From an uncultured Lentisphaeria bacterium (GTDB taxonomy: Bacteria; Verrucomicrobiota; Lentisphaeria; Victivallales; UBA1829), in contig CASDPB010000047.1 of assembly GCA_949282305.1 (NCBI GenBank), positions 155,514-219,513 of the forward strand: a stretch of DNA of 64,000 nucleotides. The letters run 5' to 3'. The translations under genes and the position numbers were made by a program. Each line of letters opens with the position of its first letter. The first letter of the stretch is position 1. This document shows, piece by piece, positions 793-60,817 of the stretch. The notes below the pieces were generated by a model that saw only the letters and a program-made list of their open reading frames with translations, had not been told where the DNA came from and did not search any database.

Positions 793-3700
793 TCATCGCC
801 TTGCGAATGCAAGATACGCGGCGGTCTCCTCCGGAGTCCTGCCGGAACGCTCCGCATAGTCCGCAAGCTGATCGTCACCGATTTTTCCGATACTGAAATA
901 CTTCGCTTCCGGATGCGCAAAATACATGCCGCAGACCGAAGCTCCCGGCTGCATCATATAACTTTCCGTCAATTTCATTCCGAACTTTCTTTCCACATCC
1001 AGCAGACGGAATATTTCCGCCTTGAGCGCATGGTCCGGCGCCGCCGGATAACCTGGCGCGGGACGGATGCCGCGAACCTTTCCGCGGAGCATGTCGGACA
1101 GAGCGGCAGACTCATTCTTCGCATATCCCCAGAATTCGCGGCGAACCCGAAGGAACAGATATTCAGCGAATGCTTCCGCCAGACGGTCCGCAAGTGTTTT
1201 GACAAGGAGCGCGGAATAATTGTCGCCCTGCTCCATGTAACATTTTCCAAGCTCATCCGCTCCGGCGCATGTCACGGCGAAAAATCCCATCCAGGAGTGA
1301 AAGCCGGAACCTTTCCGCGGCAGATAATCCGCAAGGGAAAGATTCGGAATTTCAGTATTCTTCTTCAACTGCTGGCGAAGCATCGGCAGACGCGCCAGCA
1401 CTGACCTGCACCGGGAATCCTCATAAACCTCAATGTCATCCTGAACGGAAACCGCGGGGAAAAGCCCCACGGAGGCGGAACAGCGGAAAAGTTTTCCGCT
1501 ACGGATTTTTTCCAGCAAAGCCTGCGCGTCATGTATCAGCTCCTCGCGGGTATGCACGGCGGCTTCCGTGTCAACTTCCCAGGTATTCAGGAACCTGTCC
1601 CAGTCGATATACGGGATGACCGCCTCCAGCGGTTCATCGGAGAGATCCGTCACCCCCGGACACTGTGGGACTTCGTTCGGCGTGGCGGACCAATCAGAAC
1701 GGAACGCATTTGCACGGGCATCCTCCAGCGAAAGCAGAGGAGCATGCTTCTCCTCGGATTCCGCACGGATCGCCGCATATTCCGCCTGCATTTCGGCAAT
1801 GAACTTTTCCCGCGTGTCCGGATTCATCAGCGCATTCACCAGCAGAACTCCCTGCGAGGCGTCGAGGGCGTGAACCACCGGGCCGCTGTACTGCGGCTGG
1901 ACCTTGACCGCCGTATGCGCCTTTGAAGTGGTCGCCCCGCCGAGAAGCAGCGGAATCTTCATTCCGCGCCGCTCCATTTCGGCGGCAATCGCAACCATCT
2001 CATCCAGAGAAGGCGTGATAAGCCCGCTCAAACCGATCAGATCCGCCTTTTCCTTTTCCGCAGTGTCCAGAATCGTCTGCATGGGAACCATAACGCCGAG
2101 GTCGATGATCTTGTAGTTGTTGCATTGGAGCACAACGCCGGCAATATTCTTGCCGATGTCATGCACGTCTCCTTTCACGGTCGCGATCACGATCGTTCCG
2201 TTGGAGGACGCCGCGCCCGCGTTCCCTTTGCGTGCCTCAATGACGGGAAGGAGTCTGCCGACCGCCTTTTTCATCACACGCGCGCTCTTCACCACCTGCG
2301 GGAGAAACATCTTGCCCTCGCCGAAGAGCTTCCCGACCTGTTTCATGGCGCTCATAAGAGGTCCTTCGATGATTTCCACGGGGTTGCCGAACACTCCGAG
2401 CGCCTCGTCCATGTCAGACTCGATGAACGCATCGTCGCCTTTCAGCATCGCATGGCTGATTCGCTCCTGAAGCGGTTCGCTCCGCCAGTCGGGAGAGGCT
2501 GCGGTCTGCGCGGCGGAAGCATCTTTCCTGTATTTTCCCGCAACTTCGATCAACTTCTCCGCCGCATCGGGACGACGGTTCAGGATCACATCCTCGGCAG
2601 CGTCCCGAAGATCAGACGGGAGGTCTTCATAAATCGCAATCTGTCCCGGATTTACAATTCCCATATCCATGCCGTTGCGGATCGCATGATACAGAAACAC
2701 GCTGTGAAGCGCCTCGCGGACAGTATTATTGCCTCGGAATGAGAAGGAAACATTGCTGACGCCGCCGCTGATTCTGCAGAGCGGCATCGCCTCCTTAATC
2801 GCCTTGACCGAATCAATGAAGTCCTTTGCATAGTTGTCATGCTCCTTCATGCCGGTGGCGACGGCAAATACGTTCGGATCGAAGATGATGTCCTCCGGCT
2901 TGAACCCCGCCTTCTCCGTCAGCAGCTGATAAGAACGTTTGCAAACCGCAACCCTGCGCTCCAGAGTATCCGCCTGTCCCTCCTCGTCGAACGCCATGAC
3001 CAGCACCGCCGCTCCGTAACTCCTGATTCTGCGTGCCTTTTCAAGAAACGGCGTCTCGCCTTCCTTGAGGCTGATCGAGTTGACCACGCACTTACCCTGC
3101 ACACATTTCAGCCCCGTTTCGATGACATCCCACTTTGACGAGTCGATCATGACGGGAACACGGGCAATATCAGGTTCGGAGGTTGCATAGAGCAGGAATC
3201 TTTTCATTGCCTCCGGAGAGTCAAGCATTGCGTCATCCATGTTGACGTCAATGATCTGCGCGCCGTTCTCGACCTGGCTTCGCGCAATATGAACGGCTTC
3301 CTCGTAATTGCCGGCTTTAATGAGATTCAGAAATTTCCTGGAACCCGCCACATTGGTCCGCTCGCCGACATTTACAAAATTCGTGTGTTCCGTAACGACC
3401 AGCGGATCAAGACCGCTCAGCCGGAAATACTTTTTCACTTCCGGCACCCGGTGTCCCGGAATTCCCCTCACGGCATCCGCAATCGCCCTGATATGCGCCG
3501 GAGTCGTGCCGCAGCATCCGCCGACAATGTTCAGGAGATTCGACTCCGCGAACTCTCTGAGGATGCCTCCCATCATTTCAGGACTCTGCGCATAGCGTCC
3601 GAACTCGTCAGGCAGTCCGGCATTCGGATGCGCACTGATCATAAACGGCGCTTTTGCCGCAAGTTCCGCAATATGCGGGCGCATTTCGGCTGCGCCGAGC

Positions 3701-36680: not shown

Positions 36681-38468
36681 CTATTCCGCTTTCCTGTTTT
36701 CCAAAGGCAGCTGGATATAAAAATCGCTGCCCTTTCCGGGTTCGCTGACAAGACCCGGTTTGCCGCCGTGAAGCAATGCCACATGTTTCACGATCGCCAG
36801 TCCAAGTCCCGTCCCCCCGAGTTTACGGCTCCTCGCCTTATCCACACGGTAGAAACGCTCGAACACCCGTTCCTGATGCTCCTTTGCGATCCCGATTCCA
36901 TGGTCAAGCACATCAATGCGGAACAGATTGCTGCCGCTTCGCTTCATCGTAACTTTGACGTCGGAACCCTCATTGCTGTATTTGATCGCATTGTCGATCA
37001 GATTGATGACCGCCTGTTCCAGGAGCTGGGCGTCGGCGCGGATCATCACATTATCCACGACATCAAGATTCAGCTTGATGTTTTTCGCCTCGGCGCGCGG
37101 ACGGCAAAGTTCCACGGCTTCGCGCACGGCTCCCTCCACCGAAATTTCCGGCATTTCCTCGGTGGAGCTCAAACGCTTGTGCTCCAGATTGGAAAGGCTC
37201 AGAATGTCCTGAACCAGCGCATTCAGCCGCGTGGCCTGCTGGGTGATAATCTTCATGAAACGACTCTGCGCCTCTTTGTCATCTCCGACGTTCTCCAGAG
37301 TTTCGACAGCGGCAATGATTGAGGTCAGCGGCGTCTTGATCTCATGCGTGACATCGGCGATGAAATCACGACGGAACTCCTCCAGTTTGCGGATCACGGT
37401 AATGTCCGTAATGACGAGAAGCACGCCGGGCTTGCGTTTTTCACCGAGATTCAAACGGCCGGCGCGAGCGATGAAACTGCGTTCGCCGTCCGGCATGTTG
37501 AGTGTCAGCTCCGACTCAAAAACACCGTCGGAATTCTTCGCGTCCTCAGCCAGTTTGATTAATTCGCGACTGCCTACAATCGCCGCAAAGGAAAGCCGGT
37601 TTCCATCGGAGGAGAAGTTGAACATCGCCTCCGCTGCCTTGTTCCAGCGCTTGATGATCCCGTTGCCTTTCACGAGGATCACTCCCTCCGTCATGCTGGA
37701 CAAAATCGCATCGCGCTCATTTTTTTCACGTGTGATCTTCGCCAGTTTCGCTTTGAGCTCCTCGCTCATGGAGTTCAGGGCAATCGCAAGGCTCCGTATC
37801 TCCCCGTTGTTCGGGACAGGCAGGCTCACGTCAAAATCACCTTGCGCGACCCGGTCCGCGGCACGGCGCAGTTCCTCCAGAGGATGCGTGATCAGCCGGA
37901 ACAGATAAAAAGCAAGTCCCGCGGCAACCAGAGCGCCGATGATCCCGGCGAGAAGAATCGTGCGGAACGCCTGTTTCAGAAGGACGCCGAGCCGTGCGGC
38001 TCCGACCGCCGTCCGGATGCAATAGGTCTTTCCATTCACCACGACCGGCATGGCATAGTAGGACATATAAGTTCCGAGCGTGCTGCTGTACCGGGTTGCT
38101 CCCGCGGCTTTCCCCTCCAGCGCGGAGGCGACTTCAGGGCGTTCCAGATGGTTTTCCATGAAATGGGGATCATTTTTCGAATCGGCAAGAATTTTACCCT
38201 TGTCATCAATCACAGTAACGCGGGTGTCCATTTTTTCCGAGATTTTTCTGCAGTATGCGCGCAGTTTGTCGAGATCCCCTTTTCCGATATATTCCGCAAC
38301 GGTGTCGCTCATCAGGAAATCACGCGCGGCGAGATTGTTGCGAACCGTCTCAAAATAACCGTCCTCCAGATTCGCTGCCTGCTTGTAAACGGCGAACAGC
38401 AGAAGCACAATCGCCAGCAGAAGAATCAGAGGAAGATAAATGAAGAGTTTGAAGTTGAACGTTTTCAT
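36681..38468 (-). CDS. phoR: phosphate-regulon sensor histidine kinase
   Basis: 595 aa. Two TM helices flank a periplasmic domain, then HAMP and PAS-like regions. H-box FIADVTHEIKTPLTS and G2 box GGTGLGLAIVKH. Sits directly downstream of phoB. Confidence 0.8.
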   Translation of the reverse strand: MKTFNFKLFIYLPLILLLAIVLLLFAVYKQAANLEDGYFETVRNNLAARDFLMSDTVAEYIGKGDLDKLRAYCRKISEKMDTRVTVIDDKGKILADSKNDPHFMENHLERPEVASALEGKAAGATRYSSTLGTYMSYYAMPVVVNGKTYCIRTAVGAARLGVLLKQAFRTILLAGIIGALVAAGLAFYLFRLITHPLEELRRAADRVAQGDFDVSLPVPNNGEIRSLAIALNSMSEELKAKLAKITREKNERDAILSSMTEGVILVKGNGIIKRWNKAAEAMFNFSSDGNRLSFAAIVGSRELIKLAEDAKNSDGVFESELTLNMPDGERSFIARAGRLNLGEKRKPGVLLVITDITVIRKLEEFRRDFIADVTHEIKTPLTSIIAAVETLENVGDDKEAQSRFMKIITQQATRLNALVQDILSLSNLEHKRLSSTEEMPEISVEGAVREAVELCRPRAEAKNIKLNLDVVDNVMIRADAQLLEQAVINLIDNAIKYSNEGSDVKVTMKRSGSNLFRIDVLDHGIGIAKEHQERVFERFYRVDKARSRKLGGTGLGLAIVKHVALLHGGKPGLVSEPGKGSDFYIQLPLENRKAE

Positions 38469-38471
38469 GTT

Positions 38472-39179
38472 TTACGGCTCCTGAGAGAAACGGTATCCGA
38501 TTCCGCGGACAGTTTCGATCAATTCTCCATATTCCCCCATTTTGCGGCGGAGTCCGACAATCTGCACGTCGATGGCGCGTTCCGTCACGGGATAATCGTC
38601 GCCGCGGATCGCGTTCACGATCTGATTGCGGGTAAACACCCAGCCGGGGCGTTTCGCCAGATGATAAAGGATATTGAATTCGGAACAGGTAAGGTCAAGT
38701 TCCTGCCCGTTCAACATCGCGGAACGGCGCGCCGCATTCATGTGCAGGGGACCGCGGGAAAGCTCCTTTTCATCCTCCGACGTCTCCTCCAGGGCGGCAA
38801 TGCGACGAAGAACCGCGCGGATGCGCGCCGTCAGGATTTTCGGGCTGAACGGTTTCGTGATATAGTCGTCCGCGCCGAGCTCCAGCCCGATCACGACATC
38901 GCTTTCTTCACTTTTCGCGGTCAGCATGATGACCGGAATATTCTTTGTGACAGGATCCGCCTTCAGATTCCTGCAGACCGTCAGCCCGTCCACTCCGGGA
39001 AGCATCAGGTCAAGCAGAATCAGATCCGGCTTGTAAGTGGCCGCGCTTTCCAGTGCGGATTCGCCGTTTTCGCAGCAGACAGGCACCTGATATCCCTCTC
39101 TCTGCAAATTGTACTTGATCAATTCCTGAATGGATTCCTCATCCTCGACGATCATGATTCTTTCTTTGCTCATCGGCAA
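38472..39179 (-). CDS. phoB: phosphate-regulon response regulator (OmpR/PhoB family)
   Basis: 235 aa. Receiver IMIVEDEESI...DLILLDLMLPGVDG, winged-helix C-terminus IETVRGIGYRF. Confidence 0.9.
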   Translation of the reverse strand: MPMSKERIMIVEDEESIQELIKYNLQREGYQVPVCCENGESALESAATYKPDLILLDLMLPGVDGLTVCRNLKADPVTKNIPVIMLTAKSEESDVVIGLELGADDYITKPFSPKILTARIRAVLRRIAALEETSEDEKELSRGPLHMNAARRSAMLNGQELDLTCSEFNILYHLAKRPGWVFTRNQIVNAIRGDDYPVTERAIDVQIVGLRRKMGEYGELIETVRGIGYRFSQEP

Positions 39180-39230: not shown

Positions 39231-39938
39231 TCAAAGTTCTTTTTCAACTACGGAAGAATGTTCTCCGCCGCCGGAAAAGCGGGAATAGGCATGACGCACG
39301 ATGCGCCCCGACTCCAGATAGATCACATCCTCGGCGATGTTCGTGGTGCAGTCCGCAATCCGTTCCAGACTCCGCGAAACGCCGAGCAGCGCCTGATAGG
39401 CGGCGACATGTTCCGGATCAGTCCGGACACGTTCGGGAAAATGTTCCGAATAACGTTCATGCAGCTCGTCAATCACATCATCCCCCATGATGACCTCCGT
39501 GGCGAGCGGGACATTGTGGCTGGAAAGCGCCTTGATCGAAGAATCCAGCATCCTGCGCACGGAAGCGGTCATGGCTTCAAAATCGACCGGAAGCGGCGGC
39601 ACGACGGAATCAGGCTTCGACTCCGTTGTAAACTCCGCAATGTCCACGGCAAGATCGCCGATGCGTTCCAGCTCGCCATTGACCTTCAGAACAGTGATAA
39701 TGTAACGGAGATCCCCCGCGACGGGCTGATAAAGGGCAAGCAGCTTGAGGCACTCTTCCTCGATCATGATTTCATTCCGGTCGATGTCTTCGTCTTTTTC
39801 AACGGTTTTCGCGGCAGCCTGCACATTGCCGTTCAAGAACGCCTTGACCACATTTCCCAGCATTTCGGCAACATCCACAGCCTGAGAGTAAAGTTTCTGG
39901 TCCAGAGCGCGAATCTCTTTGTAAAGATGTGTTTTCAT
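39231..39938 (-). CDS. phoU: phosphate signalling modulator PhoU
   Basis: 235 aa. Duplicated PhoU repeats, each containing an ERI(G/A)D motif. Confidence 0.9.
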   Translation of the reverse strand: MKTHLYKEIRALDQKLYSQAVDVAEMLGNVVKAFLNGNVQAAAKTVEKDEDIDRNEIMIEEECLKLLALYQPVAGDLRYIITVLKVNGELERIGDLAVDIAEFTTESKPDSVVPPLPVDFEAMTASVRRMLDSSIKALSSHNVPLATEVIMGDDVIDELHERYSEHFPERVRTDPEHVAAYQALLGVSRSLERIADCTTNIAEDVIYLESGRIVRHAYSRFSGGGEHSSVVEKEL

Positions 39939-42563: not shown

Positions 42564-43598
42564 TTAAAGTGCGTTTTTCTGCCCGTTGACGGTGATCTCG
42601 TTTTTCCAGTAATCGCCGATCATTTTGACCACATTTTCGGGCATCGGGACATAGTGCATCTTCGCGGCGGAGGCGCGCCCGCTCGTGAAGCACCAGTTGA
42701 AATATTTAAGCATCGCTCTGGCGGCGTCGGCATTTTTCTGGTCGCGATGAATCAGAATGTAGGTGACGCCGACAATCGGCCAGCTGTCCGCGCCGGGCTG
42801 ATCGGTCAGCATCTGGTAAAAGCCCTGATCGGCTTTCCAGTCGGCATGGGCGGCAGCAGCGGAAAACGCTTCGCTGTCCGCCGTGACGAATTTTCCGTCT
42901 TTGTTTTTCAGGGAGGCAACCGGAAGTTTGTATTCCGTTGCAAACGTGTATTCCGTATAGCCGATCGCGCCGCGGCTCTTTCTGACCATATTGCAGACGC
43001 CGGGGTTCTTGCTTCCGCCGATACCCGCGGGCCACTTCACGTCAGAGCCTGCGCCGACCTTGTCCGCCCATTCCTTGGAAATCTTGGCAAGATAATCCGT
43101 AAAGATATAGGTTGTTCCGGAGCTGTCGGTTCTGTGCACAACGGTGATTTTGAGTTTCGGCAGACGGAGCCCCGGATTCAGAGCCGCAATGCGCGGATCG
43201 CTCCAATTCTTGATCTTCCCGAGGAAAATATCGGCAAGAACCGCCTGATCCAGCTTCAGCTGATTCGTTTTGACACCCGGCAGATTGTAAATCAGAACCA
43301 CGCCGCCGCTGAGCATCGGGAACTGAAGAAGCCCGGATTTGTTGAGCTCGTCGATTTTGAGCGGTTTGTCGGTTCCGCCGAAGTTTGCAGTCGCCGACTT
43401 GATCTGATTGATTCCGGCTCCGGAACCGAGAGGCTGATAATTCACGCGAACGTCCTTGTTGACATTGCTGAATCCGTAAGTCCAGACCCGATACACCGGC
43501 GCGGGGAACGACGCCCCGACTCCATTGATCGTGAGGTCTGCGGCGGAGACACTCAGTGCAAGAGCCCCGGCCAGTACAGCGAGAGTTTGTTTCAACAT
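42564..43598 (-). CDS. pstS: periplasmic phosphate-binding protein
   Basis: 344 aa from ATG 43598 (AAGGAG SD; ORF open to 43631). Signal peptide MLKQTLAVLAGALALSVSA. GVGASFPAPVY motif. Confidence 0.9.
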   Translation of the reverse strand: MLKQTLAVLAGALALSVSAADLTINGVGASFPAPVYRVWTYGFSNVNKDVRVNYQPLGSGAGINQIKSATANFGGTDKPLKIDELNKSGLLQFPMLSGGVVLIYNLPGVKTNQLKLDQAVLADIFLGKIKNWSDPRIAALNPGLRLPKLKITVVHRTDSSGTTYIFTDYLAKISKEWADKVGAGSDVKWPAGIGGSKNPGVCNMVRKSRGAIGYTEYTFATEYKLPVASLKNKDGKFVTADSEAFSAAAAHADWKADQGFYQMLTDQPGADSWPIVGVTYILIHRDQKNADAARAMLKYFNWCFTSGRASAAKMHYVPMPENVVKMIGDYWKNEITVNGQKNAL

Positions 43599-43620
43599 AC
43601 CATTTTCTCCTTTTTTCAAT

Positions 43621-43689
43621 TTTCCGGGCATCTCCCGGAAAACCTGTTTTGTTGATTTATTTCAAGCGGGGCAGATTCCGCCGCCCCGC
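43621..43689 (-). other. two stem-loops in the 100-nt secretin-pstS spacer (possible partial terminator / processing or attenuation site)
   Basis: GC stem gcggggc/gccccgc (43666-43672 / 43683-43689) begins 10 nt after the secretin TAA. A second 8-bp stem tttccggg/cccggaaa (43621-43628 / 43634-43641) lies about 20 nt before the pstS SD. Neither has a strong minus-strand U-tract. Confidence 0.4.
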
Positions 43690-43698
43690 CCTTTTTCT

Positions 43699-45585
43699 TT
43701 AATATGTGTCCAAATCCAGTTTCTTTCCGGAATCGAATCCCCATTGTCCATAGCCGTAGGAATTGCTGTTTCCGGCATCTTTGGTCGCATCGCGGATGAC
43801 CTGAATATCGGAATTGATGTTTTCCGGAAGCGCGCTGTCGGGACGGACACTTTCGCATTCCGCCACTACGACCAGCTGCGATTTCTTTGTGGATTCGCTT
43901 TCCGTCGAAAACGCCCAGCCGATCAGCGGAATGTCCTTGAGAATCGGAATACCGCCCTGCCCTCTCACGACATCCAGTTTCTCAATGCCGCCGATCACGA
44001 AACGGTTGTTCCTGTTGCCGATCATGATACGGGTCGTCAGAGGCTCCAGCTGTGACTGCCGCGGCGTGCCGTCGGAAAGATACCCCATCAGCGTATTCGA
44101 TGTGATGGAAACGTCCAGAATCGTGGCATTCGCCGTAATGGAAGGCGTCACATCCATCCTGAACTGATAGCCGTTGGAGATTCCTTCCTCAATCTTGAAT
44201 CCGCTGTCGGAAAGAACATTTTCCTCTTCGCCCCACGTGATTCCCTGCACGCTGTCCGAAACCACGACTTTCTTCCCGTATTCCTGCCCGTTCTTGTAGA
44301 AGCGGGCCCCGTTGTGCGCCGTCAGTGTCACACGGACATCGCCGTTGGCGTCGGTTGTCTTCGCCGCCCCGACCACAGCATTTGCGGGGACGACCGCAAC
44401 CGCCGTTCCGCCCATGTCGATCATGTTCGTAACCGGCGTCACAGTGCCGTTTTCACTGTAGTTGCTGCCGAGCTGCATCTTGAACGCCGGATCAATCTGA
44501 TCGCCCTGTTTGGCATAGACGATTCCGGTGTTCCTCACAAGAGAGCCCTTTTTATTGTTGCGGACGGAAAGTTCTCCGGTGTAGGCGACTTTGCCTTTTC
44601 CCCTGGAGACAAGGAAGTCAAGATAACGGGTATTCCACTTCGGATTGAAATTGAAATACTGGGAATTGTTGGAACCGGCGCCGCGCTGAAGTCCGCCGCC
44701 GAAAGCCGCAGACCAGTTGTCGCGGTATCTCGCGCCCGTGCTGAAGAAATCCGCGCCGTCATTGTTCTTCCATGCCTGGAAGTCGGCGCCGAGGCGTCCG
44801 TCGTTTTCCGCGTAAATTTCATAAATCATATATTTCACGCGGACTTCCGGATGCGGGATGTCGTAAAGTTTCAGCATGTCCTCGATATTCTTGCGGGAGT
44901 AGAGAGCGGTGCTGAAGAAGAGACAGTTCAGTCCGCCGTCCACGGCGACTTTGTCCTTGCCGCCGATCAGTTCCACCGTGTCGTCGGAAACGTTTGCACC
45001 GACATTTTTGATCATCGTCTCAAGTTCACTCGCCGGACGGTTCGCGGGGAAATAGATGAATTTCGGCTGACCGGACGAGTTTCTGATGCCGGGCTTGTCC
45101 AGATGGGCAACGATGGAATCAATCCCCATGCCGTTCGGACTGTCTTTGAAACGGTATTCCTCGGCGGAGATGATGACCGCCCCGGTGCCGTCGGCAAACT
45201 TGACGCACTCAACTCCGGAGGGAATCGCAATATCGTTCTTGGTGCGATAGATGTTGTAATAGTTGTGCGGCTGGTTCGGATCTTCCCCGTCCTTGTAGTT
45301 TACGCGCAGCGCCTGGACCATTTCACGCAGATACGGGCGAATCTCATAGGCGTCGGCGTGCTTCAGGAGATAAGTTTTCGTAATGATTTTCGGATCGTTG
45401 GTATCGCGGATGAAATGAACCATTTCGGTGCCTTCCCTGATGTTCAGGCGGAGCTGAGCCTGCACCATGGACGGAGAATACGCGGGATTTGCATTGCCGG
45501 TCGGCATTTCATTGGCAAGAAGTGTCGAACCGCAGAGTGCGAGAAATGCCGTGACAGCCGATCTTTTCATATTTTTTCTTTTCAT
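43699..45585 (-). CDS. secretin-family outer-membrane protein (paralog B)
   Basis: 628 aa. Signal peptide MKRKNMKRSAVTAFLALCGSTLLA. N-domain-like KTYLLKHADAYEIRPYL. C-terminal secretin signature GGIPILKDIPLIGWAFSTESESTKKSQLVVVAECE. Confidence 0.8.
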   Translation of the reverse strand: MKRKNMKRSAVTAFLALCGSTLLANEMPTGNANPAYSPSMVQAQLRLNIREGTEMVHFIRDTNDPKIITKTYLLKHADAYEIRPYLREMVQALRVNYKDGEDPNQPHNYYNIYRTKNDIAIPSGVECVKFADGTGAVIISAEEYRFKDSPNGMGIDSIVAHLDKPGIRNSSGQPKFIYFPANRPASELETMIKNVGANVSDDTVELIGGKDKVAVDGGLNCLFFSTALYSRKNIEDMLKLYDIPHPEVRVKYMIYEIYAENDGRLGADFQAWKNNDGADFFSTGARYRDNWSAAFGGGLQRGAGSNNSQYFNFNPKWNTRYLDFLVSRGKGKVAYTGELSVRNNKKGSLVRNTGIVYAKQGDQIDPAFKMQLGSNYSENGTVTPVTNMIDMGGTAVAVVPANAVVGAAKTTDANGDVRVTLTAHNGARFYKNGQEYGKKVVVSDSVQGITWGEEENVLSDSGFKIEEGISNGYQFRMDVTPSITANATILDVSITSNTLMGYLSDGTPRQSQLEPLTTRIMIGNRNNRFVIGGIEKLDVVRGQGGIPILKDIPLIGWAFSTESESTKKSQLVVVAECESVRPDSALPENINSDIQVIRDATKDAGNSNSYGYGQWGFDSGKKLDLDTY

Positions 45586-45604: not shown

Positions 45605-47095
45605 TTATTTCTTCGCCGGGACAAGATCCGTCAGAGAGGTCATGCGGCCGGAGAGCTCCGCAATGTCCGCATCAGGATGGATGAACTCGGCGGTGACGGT
45701 CAGGAAAAAATGGGTCTTGTCAATATTTTTCGTGGTATAGCCGAAAATATATTTCAGCACCGGAAGTTCGCAGAGGAACGGAATGCCGATCGTCTGCTCC
45801 ACTTCGGAATCCTTCGTCCACGAGGTCAGCAGCTTTTCATGGTTGACTGCCATCGTCACATAAGAGTCGACGCTGCTGGACTCCGTCAGCTCTTCACCGT
45901 AGTTGTTCCGTTCCACAACCTGCGAAGAATTCAGCAGATAATTGAAATTGACGTTGCCGCCGAATTTTCTGCTGTAATCCTCCTTTGTAAAAGGCAGGAG
46001 CCCGTCTTTGTCCGGCTTGACGGAATTGAAGCAGATCACCGGATTGGAAATCGTAACGGAAAATTCAGGCATGGAGGAACGGATAAACGTCTTGTCGTTC
46101 TCCTCGCCGTCCTTCACCAGATTCTGGTATTCCGGCGTGAAAGCGAGCTCGTAGCTTCCGCCCTCGTTATTGGTGATCGTGAGGCTGCCGCTGCCCGCAA
46201 GCGTTGCTTTCCCGTTCTGCTGCAGAAGACGGATGAAGCTCATGTCAAAGGCAGGCGCCACAAAAAAACCGCCGTAGGAATAGGAAAACGCGCCGGCAGC
46301 GGAGGGAGCCGCCTGGAGCAGCGTCTGAATCAGCGCCTCATTCAATTTCAGACTTGTCAAATCGAATCCGGCAGCCATGAGATCCATGCCGGGACCGTTT
46401 TTCCATGCCAGATAGTCAACGCCGAGATCACGCATCGTACTTTCGCGGATTTCGTAAATATGGAATGTCAGGTTGACCTGCGGAAGCGGGCGGTCCAGCC
46501 AGCCGATGTATTTGATCAGGTCGCGCGTCTTGTTGCCGGAATCCTTCCAGTAGATCAGGTTTGTGGCTTCGTCGTATTGAACGACCGCGTCCTGCTTCCG
46601 GTCGCTCGTCGCATTGGAGGGAATTCCCGTGTCGCTCATGATATCCACAATCTCCTGACTGGAGCGGAACTTCGGCGTATAGACGTAACGCTGAATCCCG
46701 GTTCCGTCAAGAAGAGAACCGAACGGTCCGCGTTTCGCCGATGGACGGTCCAGCTTGGCGACCATGTCATCCACGTAAGGCATCATTTTCACGCCGGTGG
46801 TGACAACGATCATCTGTTTTGCCGAATAGTTGATGCGGTCAACCGTGGAGTTTGAGGAGTAACGCTTCACGGCGCCAAGGACAAACGGCACCAGATCGTT
46901 CGCCTTGAGATGCTTCAGATCATAGACCTTGCTGACCATATAGTTCTGGGCATCGTCCTCCTTGAATCTGATTTTCTGGACTTTGTCCGGTGCTGGCTCT
47001 TTCGTTTCAGAAGCGGGGTCGAAAGCTGCCGCGTCCATCGCGCACAGCAGTCCGCAGGCACCGCCAAGACTGACTCGAAACCATTTGTCATTCAT
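45605..47095 (-). CDS. secretin-family outer-membrane protein (paralog A)
   Basis: 496 aa from ATG 47095 (AAGGAG SD; ORF opens at TTG 47149). Signal-like MNDKWFRVSLGGACGLLCAMDAAA. N-domain-like SKVYDLKHLKANDLVPFV. C-terminal IGIPFLCELPVLKYIFGYTTKNIDKTHFFLTVTAEF. Confidence 0.75.
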   Translation of the reverse strand: MNDKWFRVSLGGACGLLCAMDAAAFDPASETKEPAPDKVQKIRFKEDDAQNYMVSKVYDLKHLKANDLVPFVLGAVKRYSSNSTVDRINYSAKQMIVVTTGVKMMPYVDDMVAKLDRPSAKRGPFGSLLDGTGIQRYVYTPKFRSSQEIVDIMSDTGIPSNATSDRKQDAVVQYDEATNLIYWKDSGNKTRDLIKYIGWLDRPLPQVNLTFHIYEIRESTMRDLGVDYLAWKNGPGMDLMAAGFDLTSLKLNEALIQTLLQAAPSAAGAFSYSYGGFFVAPAFDMSFIRLLQQNGKATLAGSGSLTITNNEGGSYELAFTPEYQNLVKDGEENDKTFIRSSMPEFSVTISNPVICFNSVKPDKDGLLPFTKEDYSRKFGGNVNFNYLLNSSQVVERNNYGEELTESSSVDSYVTMAVNHEKLLTSWTKDSEVEQTIGIPFLCELPVLKYIFGYTTKNIDKTHFFLTVTAEFIHPDADIAELSGRMTSLTDLVPAKK

Positions 47096-47164
47096 AGAAA
47101 CTCCTTTGTTTCCTTGTTTGGTTTTCGGCATTTCCGCCGTCGATACCAATAAGATAAACCCTGA

Positions 47165-47204
47165 AAATTAGCCTCGGGTAAAGTGCTTGTTAAAGTTTCG
47201 TTAA
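47165..47204 (-). promoter_or_regulatory. candidate secretin-operon promoter with a proximal pair of phased TTAACA-type repeats
   Basis: On the minus strand, TTAACG-aaact-TTAACA (47204-47188, 11-bp period). The second hexamer acts as the -35, followed by a 17-nt spacer and TAATTT (47170-47165). Confidence 0.4.
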
Positions 47205-47266
47205 CTTCTTTTCCGCATCTTTTTCTAACAATATACTGTCCGGAAATTCAGGATGAATTAAGAAAA

Positions 47267-47283
47267 TGTTAGACTTCTGTTAA
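47267..47283 (-). promoter_or_regulatory. distal pair of phased TTAACA-type repeats (Pho-box-like)
   Basis: On the minus strand, TTAACA-gaagt-CTAACA with an exact 11-bp period. Confidence 0.35.
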
Positions 47284-47442: not shown

Positions 47443-47470
47443 TTGAAAAACTGAAAAAGAAGAGTATATT
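47443..47470 (+). promoter_or_regulatory. sigma70-type promoter for the second LacI-family gene
   Basis: TTGAAA (47443-47448), 16-nt spacer, TATATT (47465-47470). It lies 50 nt upstream of ATG 47520. Confidence 0.5.
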
Positions 47471-47519: not shown

Positions 47520-48506
47520 ATGCTGAAGAAACGACTTACCTTACGCGATATTGCAAAAAAAGCAAATGTATCTTTGACTTCGGCATCCATGTATCTGAAC
47601 GGGAAAGCCCGCGCAAACCATATTTCCGAAAAAACCTGCGCCCGGATTGAAGAAGTCATCCGGCGGGAAAATTATCAGCCCAATGTCAATGCGCGCGCCA
47701 TGGCTATGAAACGGACAAATCTGGTCGGATGCGTCATGCGGGACAGCCTGGAAAGTTCCTTCTGGGCGGACATCCTTGCGGGAATTGATGAACAGCTTGC
47801 GCCGGAGAATATTCATCTGCTCCTGACCGTCTCCTCCGGCGGACTGGAAGCGGAAATGCAGGCTTTTGAATTTCTGCGCGCGAAAGGCGTCGATTCCTAT
47901 ATCTGGATTCCGACTGTAAAACGGGGCGGCAGCAACAATTATGAATCAATCCGGGAGTTTTCCGCGGAGCGCCCGGTTGTCACGCTCACAAGTCTGGTGG
48001 AGGGACTTCATGGAGTTGCCGTCGACGATGAAGCGGGAGGGCGTCTCGCCGCACGCCATTTTGTGGAAAACGGACACCGAAAACTTGCAACACTCGCAGG
48101 AAGCCGGGTCTACAAACGCTGCGAATACTTCGCGGACGAGGCAGAAAAACTCGGAGCGGAAGTCACCGCATTCAAGCACCTGGAAGACATCGCACCGGTC
48201 ATTCGGGACTTTACGGCCGTATTCTGTTTTTCCGACATGAAGGCGCTGGAGCTGTACAAATTCTGCGCCGGAGCAGGAGTACGCATTCCCGCAGACCTTT
48301 CAGTAATCGGTTATGACAATCTTTTGTTCACAGACCTCATGCTGCCTTCCCTGACCACAATTCACCAGCCGAAGCACGAACTGGGGCGTGAAACGGGAAA
48401 GCTCGTATTGAAAGCACTCGCAGACAAGAAACTGCCGCCGGAACAGATCAAACTCCCGCCGGAGCTGATTCTCCGCGCAAGCACGGCGAAATTCGTGCCG
48501 CAATGA
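47520..48506 (+). CDS. LacI-family transcriptional regulator
   Basis: 328 aa from ATG 47520 (GGAG SD; the longer ORF from 47310 is a basic low-complexity extension). HTH LTLRDIAKKANVSLTSASMYLNGK. Confidence 0.85.
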   Translation: MLKKRLTLRDIAKKANVSLTSASMYLNGKARANHISEKTCARIEEVIRRENYQPNVNARAMAMKRTNLVGCVMRDSLESSFWADILAGIDEQLAPENIHLLLTVSSGGLEAEMQAFEFLRAKGVDSYIWIPTVKRGGSNNYESIREFSAERPVVTLTSLVEGLHGVAVDDEAGGRLAARHFVENGHRKLATLAGSRVYKRCEYFADEAEKLGAEVTAFKHLEDIAPVIRDFTAVFCFSDMKALELYKFCAGAGVRIPADLSVIGYDNLLFTDLMLPSLTTIHQPKHELGRETGKLVLKALADKKLPPEQIKLPPELILRASTAKFVPQ

Positions 48507-59643: not shown

Positions 59644-60654
59644 TTATGCGGATTTTCCGGTTCCGCAGATTTTCCCGCGGAAAAACAGCATTCCGCCGCC
59701 AATCAGCAGAAGGCAGACTCCCGCCCGGAACAGCCATCCGGTCTGATTCAGCCGGCTGGACAGGATATATTCGACCGTGTCCGTGCCATCTCCGGAATCC
59801 ACTCTCCTGCACTCCGCCGCCATGCCGCCATCGGGTAGAAACTCCACCATCCAGTAACCGTAACGCGGGTCCTTCCCTTCCCCCTTCTGTCCGGAAGTCG
59901 GAACAACCAGAAGCGGCGCACCCGCGAACTCCCAGCGCGCCTCCGCATGCTGGTGCCCGGCAACGATCAGCGAAACGCGATACTCCCGCAGAAGCGGTTC
60001 CAGGCGGCGGACATCCTCATCAGGCAGACATTCGCCGCGCCCGTCGCCGCGCAGATCGACCGGGGGAACATGCGTGAACACAACCAATCTGCTGAAATGG
60101 CTTCTTTCCGCCTTGAGAACCTCTTCCAGACGTTCAACTTCCCCGGCTGCCAGACGTTCCGCGGAGGTGTCCAGCGACACAAACAGCGAATCCCCCCAGG
60201 CAAACCAGTATCCGGGCTGTCCGAAGGAACCTTTGTATGCACGCAGACCGTTTTCACGCGGATCCCTTGATTCCCTGTCATTGTTTCCCGGCGTGCAGAA
60301 AATCTTCAGATCCCCCGCCGCGCGTTTCATCCGTTCGGCAAGCCAGCAGAAATGCCGGACTTCACGTTTTCTCGCCATGTCCCCGACGCAAAGCGCAAAA
60401 TCCGCCCCACTGCTGCGGACAGCCCTCACCACCGCTTCAAACGGCTCCGTTTGAATCCGGAAGTCGCCGAACACGGCAAAGCGCATCCCCGGCTTCTCCG
60501 GATGGAAAAAACGTCCTGCCGGGGGAAGCATCAGCGGGGAGGCGTGCCCGTCATATCTTCGCTGCAGTTCATAGCAGAGTGTGCACAACACCGCCCCGAC
60601 GGCAATCAAAGCGCAGCCTCCGGCTGACAAGATTTTTTTGCGTATGTCCGACAT
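59644..60654 (-). CDS. membrane-anchored metallophosphoesterase (calcineurin-like)
   Basis: 336 aa. FAVFGDFR, CVGDMA, TPGNNDRE and VFTHVPP motifs. Hydrophobic segments at both termini. Confidence 0.8.
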   Translation of the reverse strand: MSDIRKKILSAGGCALIAVGAVLCTLCYELQRRYDGHASPLMLPPAGRFFHPEKPGMRFAVFGDFRIQTEPFEAVVRAVRSSGADFALCVGDMARKREVRHFCWLAERMKRAAGDLKIFCTPGNNDRESRDPRENGLRAYKGSFGQPGYWFAWGDSLFVSLDTSAERLAAGEVERLEEVLKAERSHFSRLVVFTHVPPVDLRGDGRGECLPDEDVRRLEPLLREYRVSLIVAGHQHAEARWEFAGAPLLVVPTSGQKGEGKDPRYGYWMVEFLPDGGMAAECRRVDSGDGTDTVEYILSSRLNQTGWLFRAGVCLLLIGGGMLFFRGKICGTGKSA

Positions 60655-60675: not shown

Positions 60676-60710
60676 TTGACCAGCAGAATTTCTATACTAT
60701 ATCTATACTA
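60676..60710 (+). promoter_or_regulatory. candidate promoter overlapping two 11-bp-phased TCTATACTA direct repeats
   Basis: TTGACC (60676-60681), 16-nt spacer, TATATC (60698-60703). TCTATACTA occurs at 60691-60699 and 60702-60710. Confidence 0.4.
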
Positions 60711-60817
60711 AATTCTAAATCAAGTATAAAAGAAGTTTTTTTTCTGGAAAAAGAAGGTGGACAGCACATGTTATAGGAAAAAAGTTATGAAAATGGAAAT
60801 TGATATGGTCTTGCCTT

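Follow-up and report, generated by a model that had tools for sequence, protein, structure and literature searches.

Phased hexamer arrays upstream of a secretin-pst operon as probable phosphate-regulon operators in an uncultured Lentisphaeria bacterium

We analysed a 64,000-nucleotide stretch of DNA from an uncultured Lentisphaeria bacterium (contig CASDPB010000047.1; hereafter, the window), in which two genes for secretin-like proteins, A and B (secA and secB), are followed by the pst genes and the pho genes. Direct repeats of TTAACA-type hexamers, spaced by one 11-bp period, lie upstream of secA. We conclude, with a probability of about 0.8, that these repeats form two arrays of PhoB-type operators that drive the secretin-pst operon. 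The conclusion is carried by the repeats themselves, their phase, their selective conservation, their fixed geometry, and their association with pstS across many genomes. The original prediction had read them as an operator of the Pho-box type, and the data agree with this: the 11-bp direct repeats abut a −10 element and are found before pstS across related genomes.

The intergenic gap that contains the repeats extends over 424 nt, from the start codon of secA (ATG at 47095) to that of a divergent LacI-family gene (ATG at 47520). Read directly on the minus strand, it holds a distal pair, TTAACA (47283-47278), gaagt, CTAACA (47272-47267), and a proximal pair, TTAACG (47204-47199), aaact, TTAACA (47193-47188). 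All the coordinates previously given for the two pairs are correct, and the 11-bp period is exact in both. When both strands of the window are counted, these two are the only matches to YTAACR-N5-YTAACR; dinucleotide shuffles predict 0.01, so that the observed number is 200 times the chance expectation. The single hexamer YTAACR is about five-fold depleted (10 copies versus 50 ± 6.6 expected from dinucleotide shuffles), and half of its copies (5 of 10) fall within the 96 bp between 47188 and 47283. We considered selection against stray PhoB sites as the cause of this depletion, but a simpler account suffices: in four of the six reading frames, the hexamer introduces either a stop codon or a rare codon for leucine, which is the likely explanation.

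Both pairs run on, in the same 11-bp phase, into two weaker repeats that had gone unnoticed. Each pair thereby appears to be the strong half of an array of four repeats. We scored the repeats with a hexamer matrix trained solely on 15 distant loci (45-53% protein identity), from which the window and its close relatives were excluded. The repeats are, from the distal to the proximal end:

47278 to 47283, minus strand: distal repeat 1, TTAACA, 9.1 bits; unchanged in loci L001, L002, L081 and L083 while the spacers diverge
47267 to 47272, minus strand: distal repeat 2, CTAACA, 9.5 bits
47256 to 47261, minus strand: distal repeat 3, TTAATT, 4.1 bits; invariant among 93%-identical relatives
47245 to 47250, minus strand: candidate distal repeat 4, TGAATT, weak (−1.9 bits); TGAATT or TGAATC in relatives
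47199 to 47204, minus strand: proximal repeat 1, TTAACG, 5.1 bits; poorly kept in L003-L005 (CAAATC, TGAATG)
47188 to 47193, minus strand: proximal repeat 2, TTAACA, 9.1 bits; TTAACA, CTAACA or TTAATA in all close relatives
47177 to 47182, minus strand: proximal repeat 3, TTTACC, 3.4 bits; TTCACA, TTCACG or TTCATC in relatives
47166 to 47171, minus strand: proximal repeat 4, CTAATT, 4.5 bits; overlaps TAATTT; CTAAT invariant in the alignment of close relatives (A2)

Only 0.4% of the hexamers of the window reach 4 bits. We count TGAATT (47250-47245) as a probable repeat on account of its phase and conservation. The sums of four hexamers in phase, 22.1 for the distal array and 20.7 for the proximal one, are the two best in the window (128 kb over both strands), whereas local shuffles (n = 200) have a window maximum of 12.8 ± 2.6. 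The distal array begins 79 bp upstream of the proximal one. This offset does not correspond to a whole number of 11-bp periods, so that the arrays do not make up one continuous phased platform.

The same motif emerges from other genomes without reference to the window. A genome scan provided 80 loci, whose gene order was established by tblastn searches with the proteins of the window. The upstream regions of distant secA orthologues share a recurring layout (a hexamer, 5 nt, YTAACA, 9 nt, TAnnnT). An unseeded Gibbs sampler applied to 20 non-redundant upstream regions of secA orthologues converged on CTAAC-N6-CTAACA, with TAnnnT 9 nt downstream. The consensus recovered for the lineage, the Victivallales, is CTAACA-N5-CTAACA-N9-TAnnnT. 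A 32-column matrix of this motif, trained on the same 15 distant loci, ranks 47283 first (17.5 bits) and 47182 second (15.5 bits) among all positions of the window, both strands included. The former match corresponds to distal repeats 1 and 2, and the latter to proximal repeats 3 and 4 together with the hexamer TATCTT. The scores of the hexamer matrix are also raised at offsets −22 and −33, on which it had not been trained.

We then turned to phosphate loci lacking the secretins. A metagenome scan with a PstS alignment identified 80 pst loci, most of them without secretins, and 60 distinct secretin-less loci were used for the test. Immediately before pstS, the secretin-trained matrix reached a score of 14 bits or more in 41 of the 60 (controls: 0.6%) and of 20 bits or more in 31 of them (control segments: 0.2%). 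These occurrences lie between about −35 and −165 from the start of pstS. Across 662 kb, there are 43 hits of at least 19 bits, and all except three are upstream of pstS, of a secretin A homologue, or of a porin gene. The geometry of the motif is shared with the E. coli and cyanobacterial Pho boxes, and so we read it as the Pho box of this lineage, of which the arrays of the window would be instances.

The relation between the repeats and the −10 element changes the picture of the promoter. Each array is followed at a fixed distance by a hexamer of the −10 type, from which we predicted the start sites and the leader:

47230 to 47235, minus strand: distal −10 element, TATATT, 9 nt after repeat 4; predicted start at about 47223-47226
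47151 to 47156, minus strand: proximal −10 element, TATCTT, 9 nt after repeat 4; predicted start at about 47144-47147
47096 to 47146, minus strand: predicted 5′ untranslated region (UTR) of secA, with a hairpin (47139-47126) and the ribosome-binding site GGAG; fold −11.4 kcal/mol, z −2.3

The −10 element is placed 9 nt past the last repeat in the 15 training loci and in more than 40 test loci, and never at 17 nt. TATCTT at this spacing is the hexamer of many pstS promoters (L089-L152) and the commonest −10 of the motif family. It is invariant in the window, L001, L002 and L003, and reads TATTGT in L004 and L005. The distal TATATT (47235-47230), a second promoter candidate that the original prediction did not recognise, is invariant in L001, L002, L081 and L083, although 7 to 8 of the 9 spacer bases have changed. 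The earlier proposal was a different promoter, in which the proximal TTAACA served as the −35 and TAATTT (47170-47165) as the −10. TAATTT is present, 17 nt after TTAACA, but its role as a −10 does not hold up. It is the conserved fourth repeat, CTAATT, with the frame shifted by one base; hence its last base varies whereas CTAAT does not. In L001, L002, L081 and L083 it reads TAATCA, with loss of the key final T, and conservation thus tracks the CTAAT register. With TATCTT at the distance fixed in the family, the predicted start moves from the vicinity of 47158 to about 47144-47147.

A scan for sigma-70 promoters reported no canonical promoter on the minus strand of the gap, TTAACA-17-TAATTT included. 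This absence is consistent with an activator-dependent promoter and is not evidence against a promoter. The best sigma-70 match of the region is the promoter-like site at 47443-47470 on the LacI side, as originally noted. An Rfam scan of the whole window returned zero family matches, which leaves the 424-nt gap without any known riboswitch or small RNA. In the leader, the block with the hairpin CGGCG-GAAA-UGCCG (47126-47139) is conserved in L001-L005, and the arms are apparently shifted or compensated in L003-L005 (GGCG...CGCC). Located at the predicted 5′ end of the secA mRNA, the hairpin may serve to stabilise the transcript.

The comparison with relatives shows that the repeats and the −10 elements are maintained in preference to the bases between them. 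In the alignment of the upstream regions of close relatives, the conserved parts are the proximal TTAACA, the invariant CTAAT and the block GTTATCTTATTGG, and the remainder diverges. In the comparison with 93%-identical relatives, the hexamers and −10 of the distal array differ at 0-1 of 30 positions and its spacers at 13-15 of 24 (p from 2e-5 to 1.5e-7). For the proximal array, the corresponding counts are 4-7 of 30 and 11-14 of 24 (p 0.012-0.051). The relatives also clarify which gene is served. The LacI gene is absent from the upstream flank in 80-94%-identical relatives (L001-L005), which nevertheless keep arrays. Together with the distance of 160 bp between the arrays and the best promoter on the LacI side, this indicates that the arrays serve the secretin side, as had been proposed.

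In the mechanism that we propose, scarcity of phosphate would lead PhoR to phosphorylate the OmpR-family regulator encoded at 38472-39179, whose head-to-tail dimers would occupy successive pairs of hexamers. The four YTAACA-type hexamers of each promoter, one helical turn (11 bp) apart, would stand in for the −35 element. The bound regulator would recruit RNA polymerase to two tandem promoters lacking a −35 within 47145-47283. Transcription would then run through both secretin-like genes into the pst and pho genes, resulting in positive autoregulation. The identity of the binding protein, the induction by phosphate limitation, the start sites and the read-through into pstS are what we infer from the comparisons.

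Several observations weigh against this reading. The distal array is kept only in very close relatives (L001, L002, L081-L084) and is absent from L003-L005; this restriction to the closest clade makes its role as a promoter less secure. In each array, the strongest hexamers are distal to the promoter and the repeats beside the −10 are weak (TGAATT −1.9, TTTACC 3.4 and CTAATT 4.5 bits), whereas most relatives have strong repeats in the two positions adjoining the −10. The matrix scan shows no other convincing site in the window. The pair of hairpins in the secB-pstS gap could reduce read-through. As for the regulator, PhoB is the NCBIfam model that it matches best, but the score of 240 bits falls short of the equivalog cut-off of 296 bits. 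Its DNA-binding domain is no closer to that of E. coli PhoB than to those of other OmpR-family members. When compared with solved structures, this domain is a generic OmpR-family winged helix from which specificity is not readable. The best NCBIfam matches of the kinase are PnpS, WalK and PhoR, all below their cut-offs. The PhoB-like protein is the only regulator conserved in the operon.

This last point bears on the possibility that the repeats are operators of another OmpR-family regulator, or of the divergent LacI repressor, and that control of the secretins is unrelated to phosphate. The low score of the regulator would fit such a possibility, as would the fact that the motif follows the orthologues of the secretin pair even where pst is not adjacent (L024, L036, L042, L046, L078). 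However, the motif stands directly before pstS in more than two-thirds of the secretin-less loci (41/60, see above), and it also occurs in the gap between secB and pstS of L018, L020, L025, L026, L044 and L137. A LacI operator can be set aside: those of the LacI family are inverted repeats, these are direct, and arrays persist in L001-L005, where LacI is absent upstream. We consider a regulator other than PhoB very improbable. Chance is effectively refuted. The intergenic DNA is A+T-rich here, and the best four-repeat score among the 200 local shuffles (22.8) is just above the observed 22.1. Yet there are two arrays where 0.01 pairs are expected, their hexamers are selectively conserved relative to the spacers, and a matrix built from other genomes recovers both sites.

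The other alternatives concern the number of promoters. If the proximal TTAACA were a sigma-70 −35 and TAATTT its −10, with a start near 47158, the distal pair would be an auxiliary PhoB site. The spacing of 17 nt is the textbook one, TTAACA matches TTGACA at four of six positions, and the lack of the distal array in L003-L005 would be accommodated. This arrangement is nonetheless improbable given the change to TAATCA beside an invariant CTAAT, the constant 9-nt distance in the other loci, the silence of the sigma-70 scan on this pair of elements, and the invariant TATATT that the distal array has at its own 9 nt. It is also conceivable that the proximal array alone is a promoter and that the distal one is either a cooperative upstream platform for binding or a decaying duplicate without output of its own. 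The confinement of the distal array to the closest clade and its weak fourth repeat (−1.9 bits) point that way, and in E. coli pstS multiple Pho boxes lie upstream of one start site. But the distal TATATT lies exactly 9 nt past repeat 4 and has stayed invariant amid changed spacer bases, the 79-bp offset rules out one continuous phased platform, and the 55%-identity group (L009, L010, L013, L019, L064) carries a similar array. We thus regard a proximal promoter alone as rather unlikely, and moderately favour the reading in which both arrays are separate promoters.

The motif resembles known Pho boxes to various degrees. In the E. coli box, repeats follow one another in tandem every 11 bp and are located about 10 bp before TAN3T (PMC1906773). 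As at the E. coli phoA and pstS promoters, the 11-bp direct repeats of the window replace the −35, the motif precedes pstS, and the presumed regulator is encoded within the regulon. The hexamer differs: it is CTAACA (TTAACA in the window) instead of CTGTCA, with only T2, A4 and A6 of the hexamer register in common. The arrangement differs also, with four repeats per array and two tandem arrays, each with its own −10. Neither the arrays of the window nor the motif of the lineage match the enterobacterial consensus CTGTCAT-N4-CTGTCAT. One locus, L160, has GTCATA-aagcc-GTCATA-9 nt-TACACT (about 3040-3075, with pstS at 3129), an E. coli-type box in the frame of the CTAACA box. It is the sole such case among the fetched loci, and indicates that the geometry is shared while the hexamer is different. 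The box of the window is thus best described as a lineage-specific variant of the Pho repeat and not as the E. coli type. By its letters, it appears closest to the cyanobacterial TTAAC core and to the TT(A/T/C)ACA repeat of B. subtilis.

The B. subtilis box belongs to the PhoP-PhoR system of a Gram-positive and occurs also inside coding regions and on repressed promoters. Its hexamer is almost identical to ours and its period similar, but we saw no sites in coding regions or on repressed promoters here. The cyanobacterial SphR box precedes pstS and sphX and consists of at least three tandem CTTAACCT repeats of 8 bp, separated by linkers of 3 bp (PMC1906773). Like the arrays of the window, it has a TTAAC core and an 11-bp period, comprises at least three repeats at each site, and is found before pstS. 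It comes from another phylum, the 3′ half of its repeat is ACCT instead of ACA, and the 9-nt distance to the −10 is established here for Victivallales. A PhoB motif has been derived by chromatin immunoprecipitation (ChIP) in Waddlia chondrophila, whose regulator is also of the OmpR/PhoB family and which belongs to the same (PVC) superphylum. This 21-bp consensus, (T/A)NTNAA(G/A)AAANTGN(T/A)AAATTT, does not have the pst genes among its targets (PMC4989314) and bears no resemblance to CTAACA-N5-CTAACA.

The genes downstream of the arrays, which match the original description, and the gap that separates the secretins from pstS, are as follows:

45605 to 47095, minus strand: secretin-like protein A, 496 aa, first gene of the proposed unit
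43699 to 45585, minus strand: secretin-like protein B, 628 aa, 19 nt after A
43599 to 43698, minus strand: secB-pstS gap, 100 nt, with two 11-bp hairpins, no Pho box and no U tract
42564 to 43598, minus strand: pstS; NCBIfam PstS equivalog, 387 bits versus a cut-off of 205 bits
39959 to 42544, minus strand: pstC, pstA and pstB; Pfam BPD_transp_1 twice and ABC_tran once
39231 to 39938, minus strand: phoU; NCBIfam phoU_full, 179 bits versus a cut-off of 130 bits
38472 to 39179, minus strand: phoB-like OmpR-family response regulator, Pfam Response_reg and Trans_reg_C; presumed binder of the repeats
36681 to 38468, minus strand: phoR-like sensor kinase; Pfam HAMP, PAS, HisKA and HATPase_c

The likely start of pstS, chosen from the sequence, is the ATG at 43598, behind GGAG. 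The order secA-secB-pstS(-CAB-phoU-phoBR) was found in about 22 genome loci, with secA identities from 94% down to 45%. Given this conserved order and a secB-pstS gap without promoter in this clade, the single secretin-secretin-pstSCAB-phoU-phoBR unit of the original prediction is plausible. It had also reported the absence of a convincing −10 before pstS. The matrix and sigma-70 scans show no Pho box or promoter-like site in the gap. The equivalent gap in L081-L084, of the same clade, reaches a matrix score of −1.2 at best. Several more distant relatives have a second box there (the six loci listed above). Since this clade has none, nor a promoter-like site, the expression of its pstS probably depends on the promoters upstream of secA. 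The site that had been raised as a caveat, TTGAAA-taaa-TCAACA, was rejected as a promoter: it has a 10-bp period, or reads at best as CTTGAA-5-TCAACA, lacks a −10 at 9 nt and scores below 5. The two hairpins of the gap (GGGCGGGGCGG...CUGCCCCGCUU and GGUUUUCCGGG...CCCGGAAAAUU) have a fold of −35.3 kcal/mol (z −4.6). Their role could lie in processing or in stability, or they could attenuate partially and so set the ratio of secretin to Pst.

The secretin pair deserves separate consideration. Both proteins match the Pfam family Secretin (PF00263) above its cut-off, with 29.2 bits for A and 56 bits for B; the match of A to Secretin_N is weak and below the cut-off. The AlphaFold model of secretin A (pLDDT 63) matches GspD with an E of 2e-16, and also InvG, PilQ and pIV. 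Secretin A has more than 1000 homologues, and the named ones are all from Victivallaceae, Victivallales or Lentisphaerota. In related loci, secretin B is invariably accompanied by A. Among the secA homologues of 45% identity or more with an examinable upstream region, nearly all have a Pho-box array or a Pho-box-like pair of hexamers (exceptions: L011, L032, L038), and the paralogues at 40-44% are mostly without box. The box is also kept where pst is not adjacent, i.e., in L024, L036, L039, L041-L043, L046, L078 and the 55%-identity group (L006-L010, L013, L019, L064). This retention irrespective of pst adjacency suggests that the secretin pair is itself a member of the regulon and not a passenger. 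The 55%-identity pairs that are not followed by pst (L006, L008, L009, L010, L013, L019, L064) have four-repeat arrays about 110-180 nt upstream of secA, which resemble the distal array of the window. An example is TTAACA/CAAACA/TGCATA/TGAAAG, from the group of L009, L010, L013, L019 and L064. The Pho-regulated pair appears to be one orthologous group that was repeatedly linked to and unlinked from pst.

Two secretin-less loci have genes for other outer-membrane proteins under the same box. In L101, a gene of the Porin_5 family (494-1975; 31.7 bits) lies about 4 kb upstream of pstS. In L157, a barrel of the Alginate_exp type (640-2078; 21.7 bits) is directly upstream of pstS and fills the slot of the operon that the secretin pair holds in the window. 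This shared position suggests that the pair is a Pho-regulated outer-membrane channel. Similarly, the genes for PhoE in E. coli and OprP/OprO in Pseudomonas encode outer-membrane proteins and are under a Pho box, beside pst or in step with it. The likeness is one of regulation and operon position, since here the slot is held by two proteins of the secretin superfamily, which do not have the beta-barrel fold of porins.

We searched for partners of a secretion or pilus system. Pfam identified no inner-membrane platform or ATPase genes of type II secretion, type III secretion or type IV pili in the operon. A survey of about 50 paralogous pairs covered 126 neighbours, and no secretion ATPase or platform is among their 25 most frequent Pfam families; N_methyl, which is pseudopilin-like, has two matches. 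The secretion machinery could be encoded elsewhere in the genome. Some paralogous pairs are beside importers: an NMT1-type binding protein with an ABC permease and an ATPase in Victivallis vadensis (L055), FeoB (L068), and a ModA/Sbp-type binding protein (L038). Pfam counts two Amt and two FeoB among the 126 neighbours. The other contexts are mostly heterogeneous or unrelated (AraC, GntR, glycosyltransferases, M48 peptidase), and transporter neighbours are a minority, so that the importers are a hint and not a finding. It is possible, if doubtful, that the pair is a stand-alone and perhaps hetero-oligomeric channel for import through the outer membrane instead of part of a secretion or pilus machine. 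Such a counterpart of PhoE/OprP would feed the periplasmic PstS with phosphate or with bulkier sources of phosphorus, such as polyphosphate, nucleotides or DNA. The boxes kept before secA homologues, the porin genes under the same box, the importers beside some paralogous pairs and the lack of ATPase or platform genes for secretion in the vicinity all agree with this reading.

The matrix scans drew attention to a few other sites. In the window, the matches at 60799 (13.8 bits, upstream of a calcineurin-like phosphoesterase), 17437 and 62523 were rejected, with scores at the level of noise, no phased repeats and, for two of the three, implausible contexts. Close to the 60799 match, the A+T-rich leader of the phosphoesterase gene (59644-60654) contains an almost perfect tandem, TAGTATAGA-TA-TAGTATAGA (60690-60730, minus strand). 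A small gene starting at about 60808 on the opposite strand was taken by eye for a regulator of the helix-turn-helix (HTH) type, and the tandem may be the operator of this local regulator. Elsewhere, the Pho matrix matches positions just downstream of phoU, at L123:5889 (23.5 bits) and at L093:10329 / L094:6365 (minus strand; 20.3 bits). No open reading frame (ORF) of at least 100 aa lies behind the L123 site, and the L093 and L094 sites have a 181-aa ORF without Pfam match on the opposite strand. These sites may belong to further members of the regulon or to small genes.

These results supply an operator consensus of the phosphate regulon for Lentisphaerota, CTAACA-N5-CTAACA-N9-TAnnnT. In the literature that we searched, we found no description of a Pho box in this phylum, nor one of Pho-regulated secretins, and the Waddlia motif was the only PhoB motif found there for the PVC superphylum. 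The authors of that study explicitly call for the PhoB regulons of other PVC members (PMC4989314). The position matrix can be used directly to predict phosphate regulons in the genomes of gut and sediment Victivallales. The regulatory element itself is of an ordinary and well-understood type; what sets it apart is an understudied gut phylum and the unusual first genes of the operon. A widespread and uncharacterised pair of the secretin family would thus take its place in the response to phosphate starvation, and the question becomes whether it is a channel for the uptake of phosphorus sources or a route of export. If it were the former, the secretin fold would have been adapted in Victivallales to a family of uptake pores under nutrient control.

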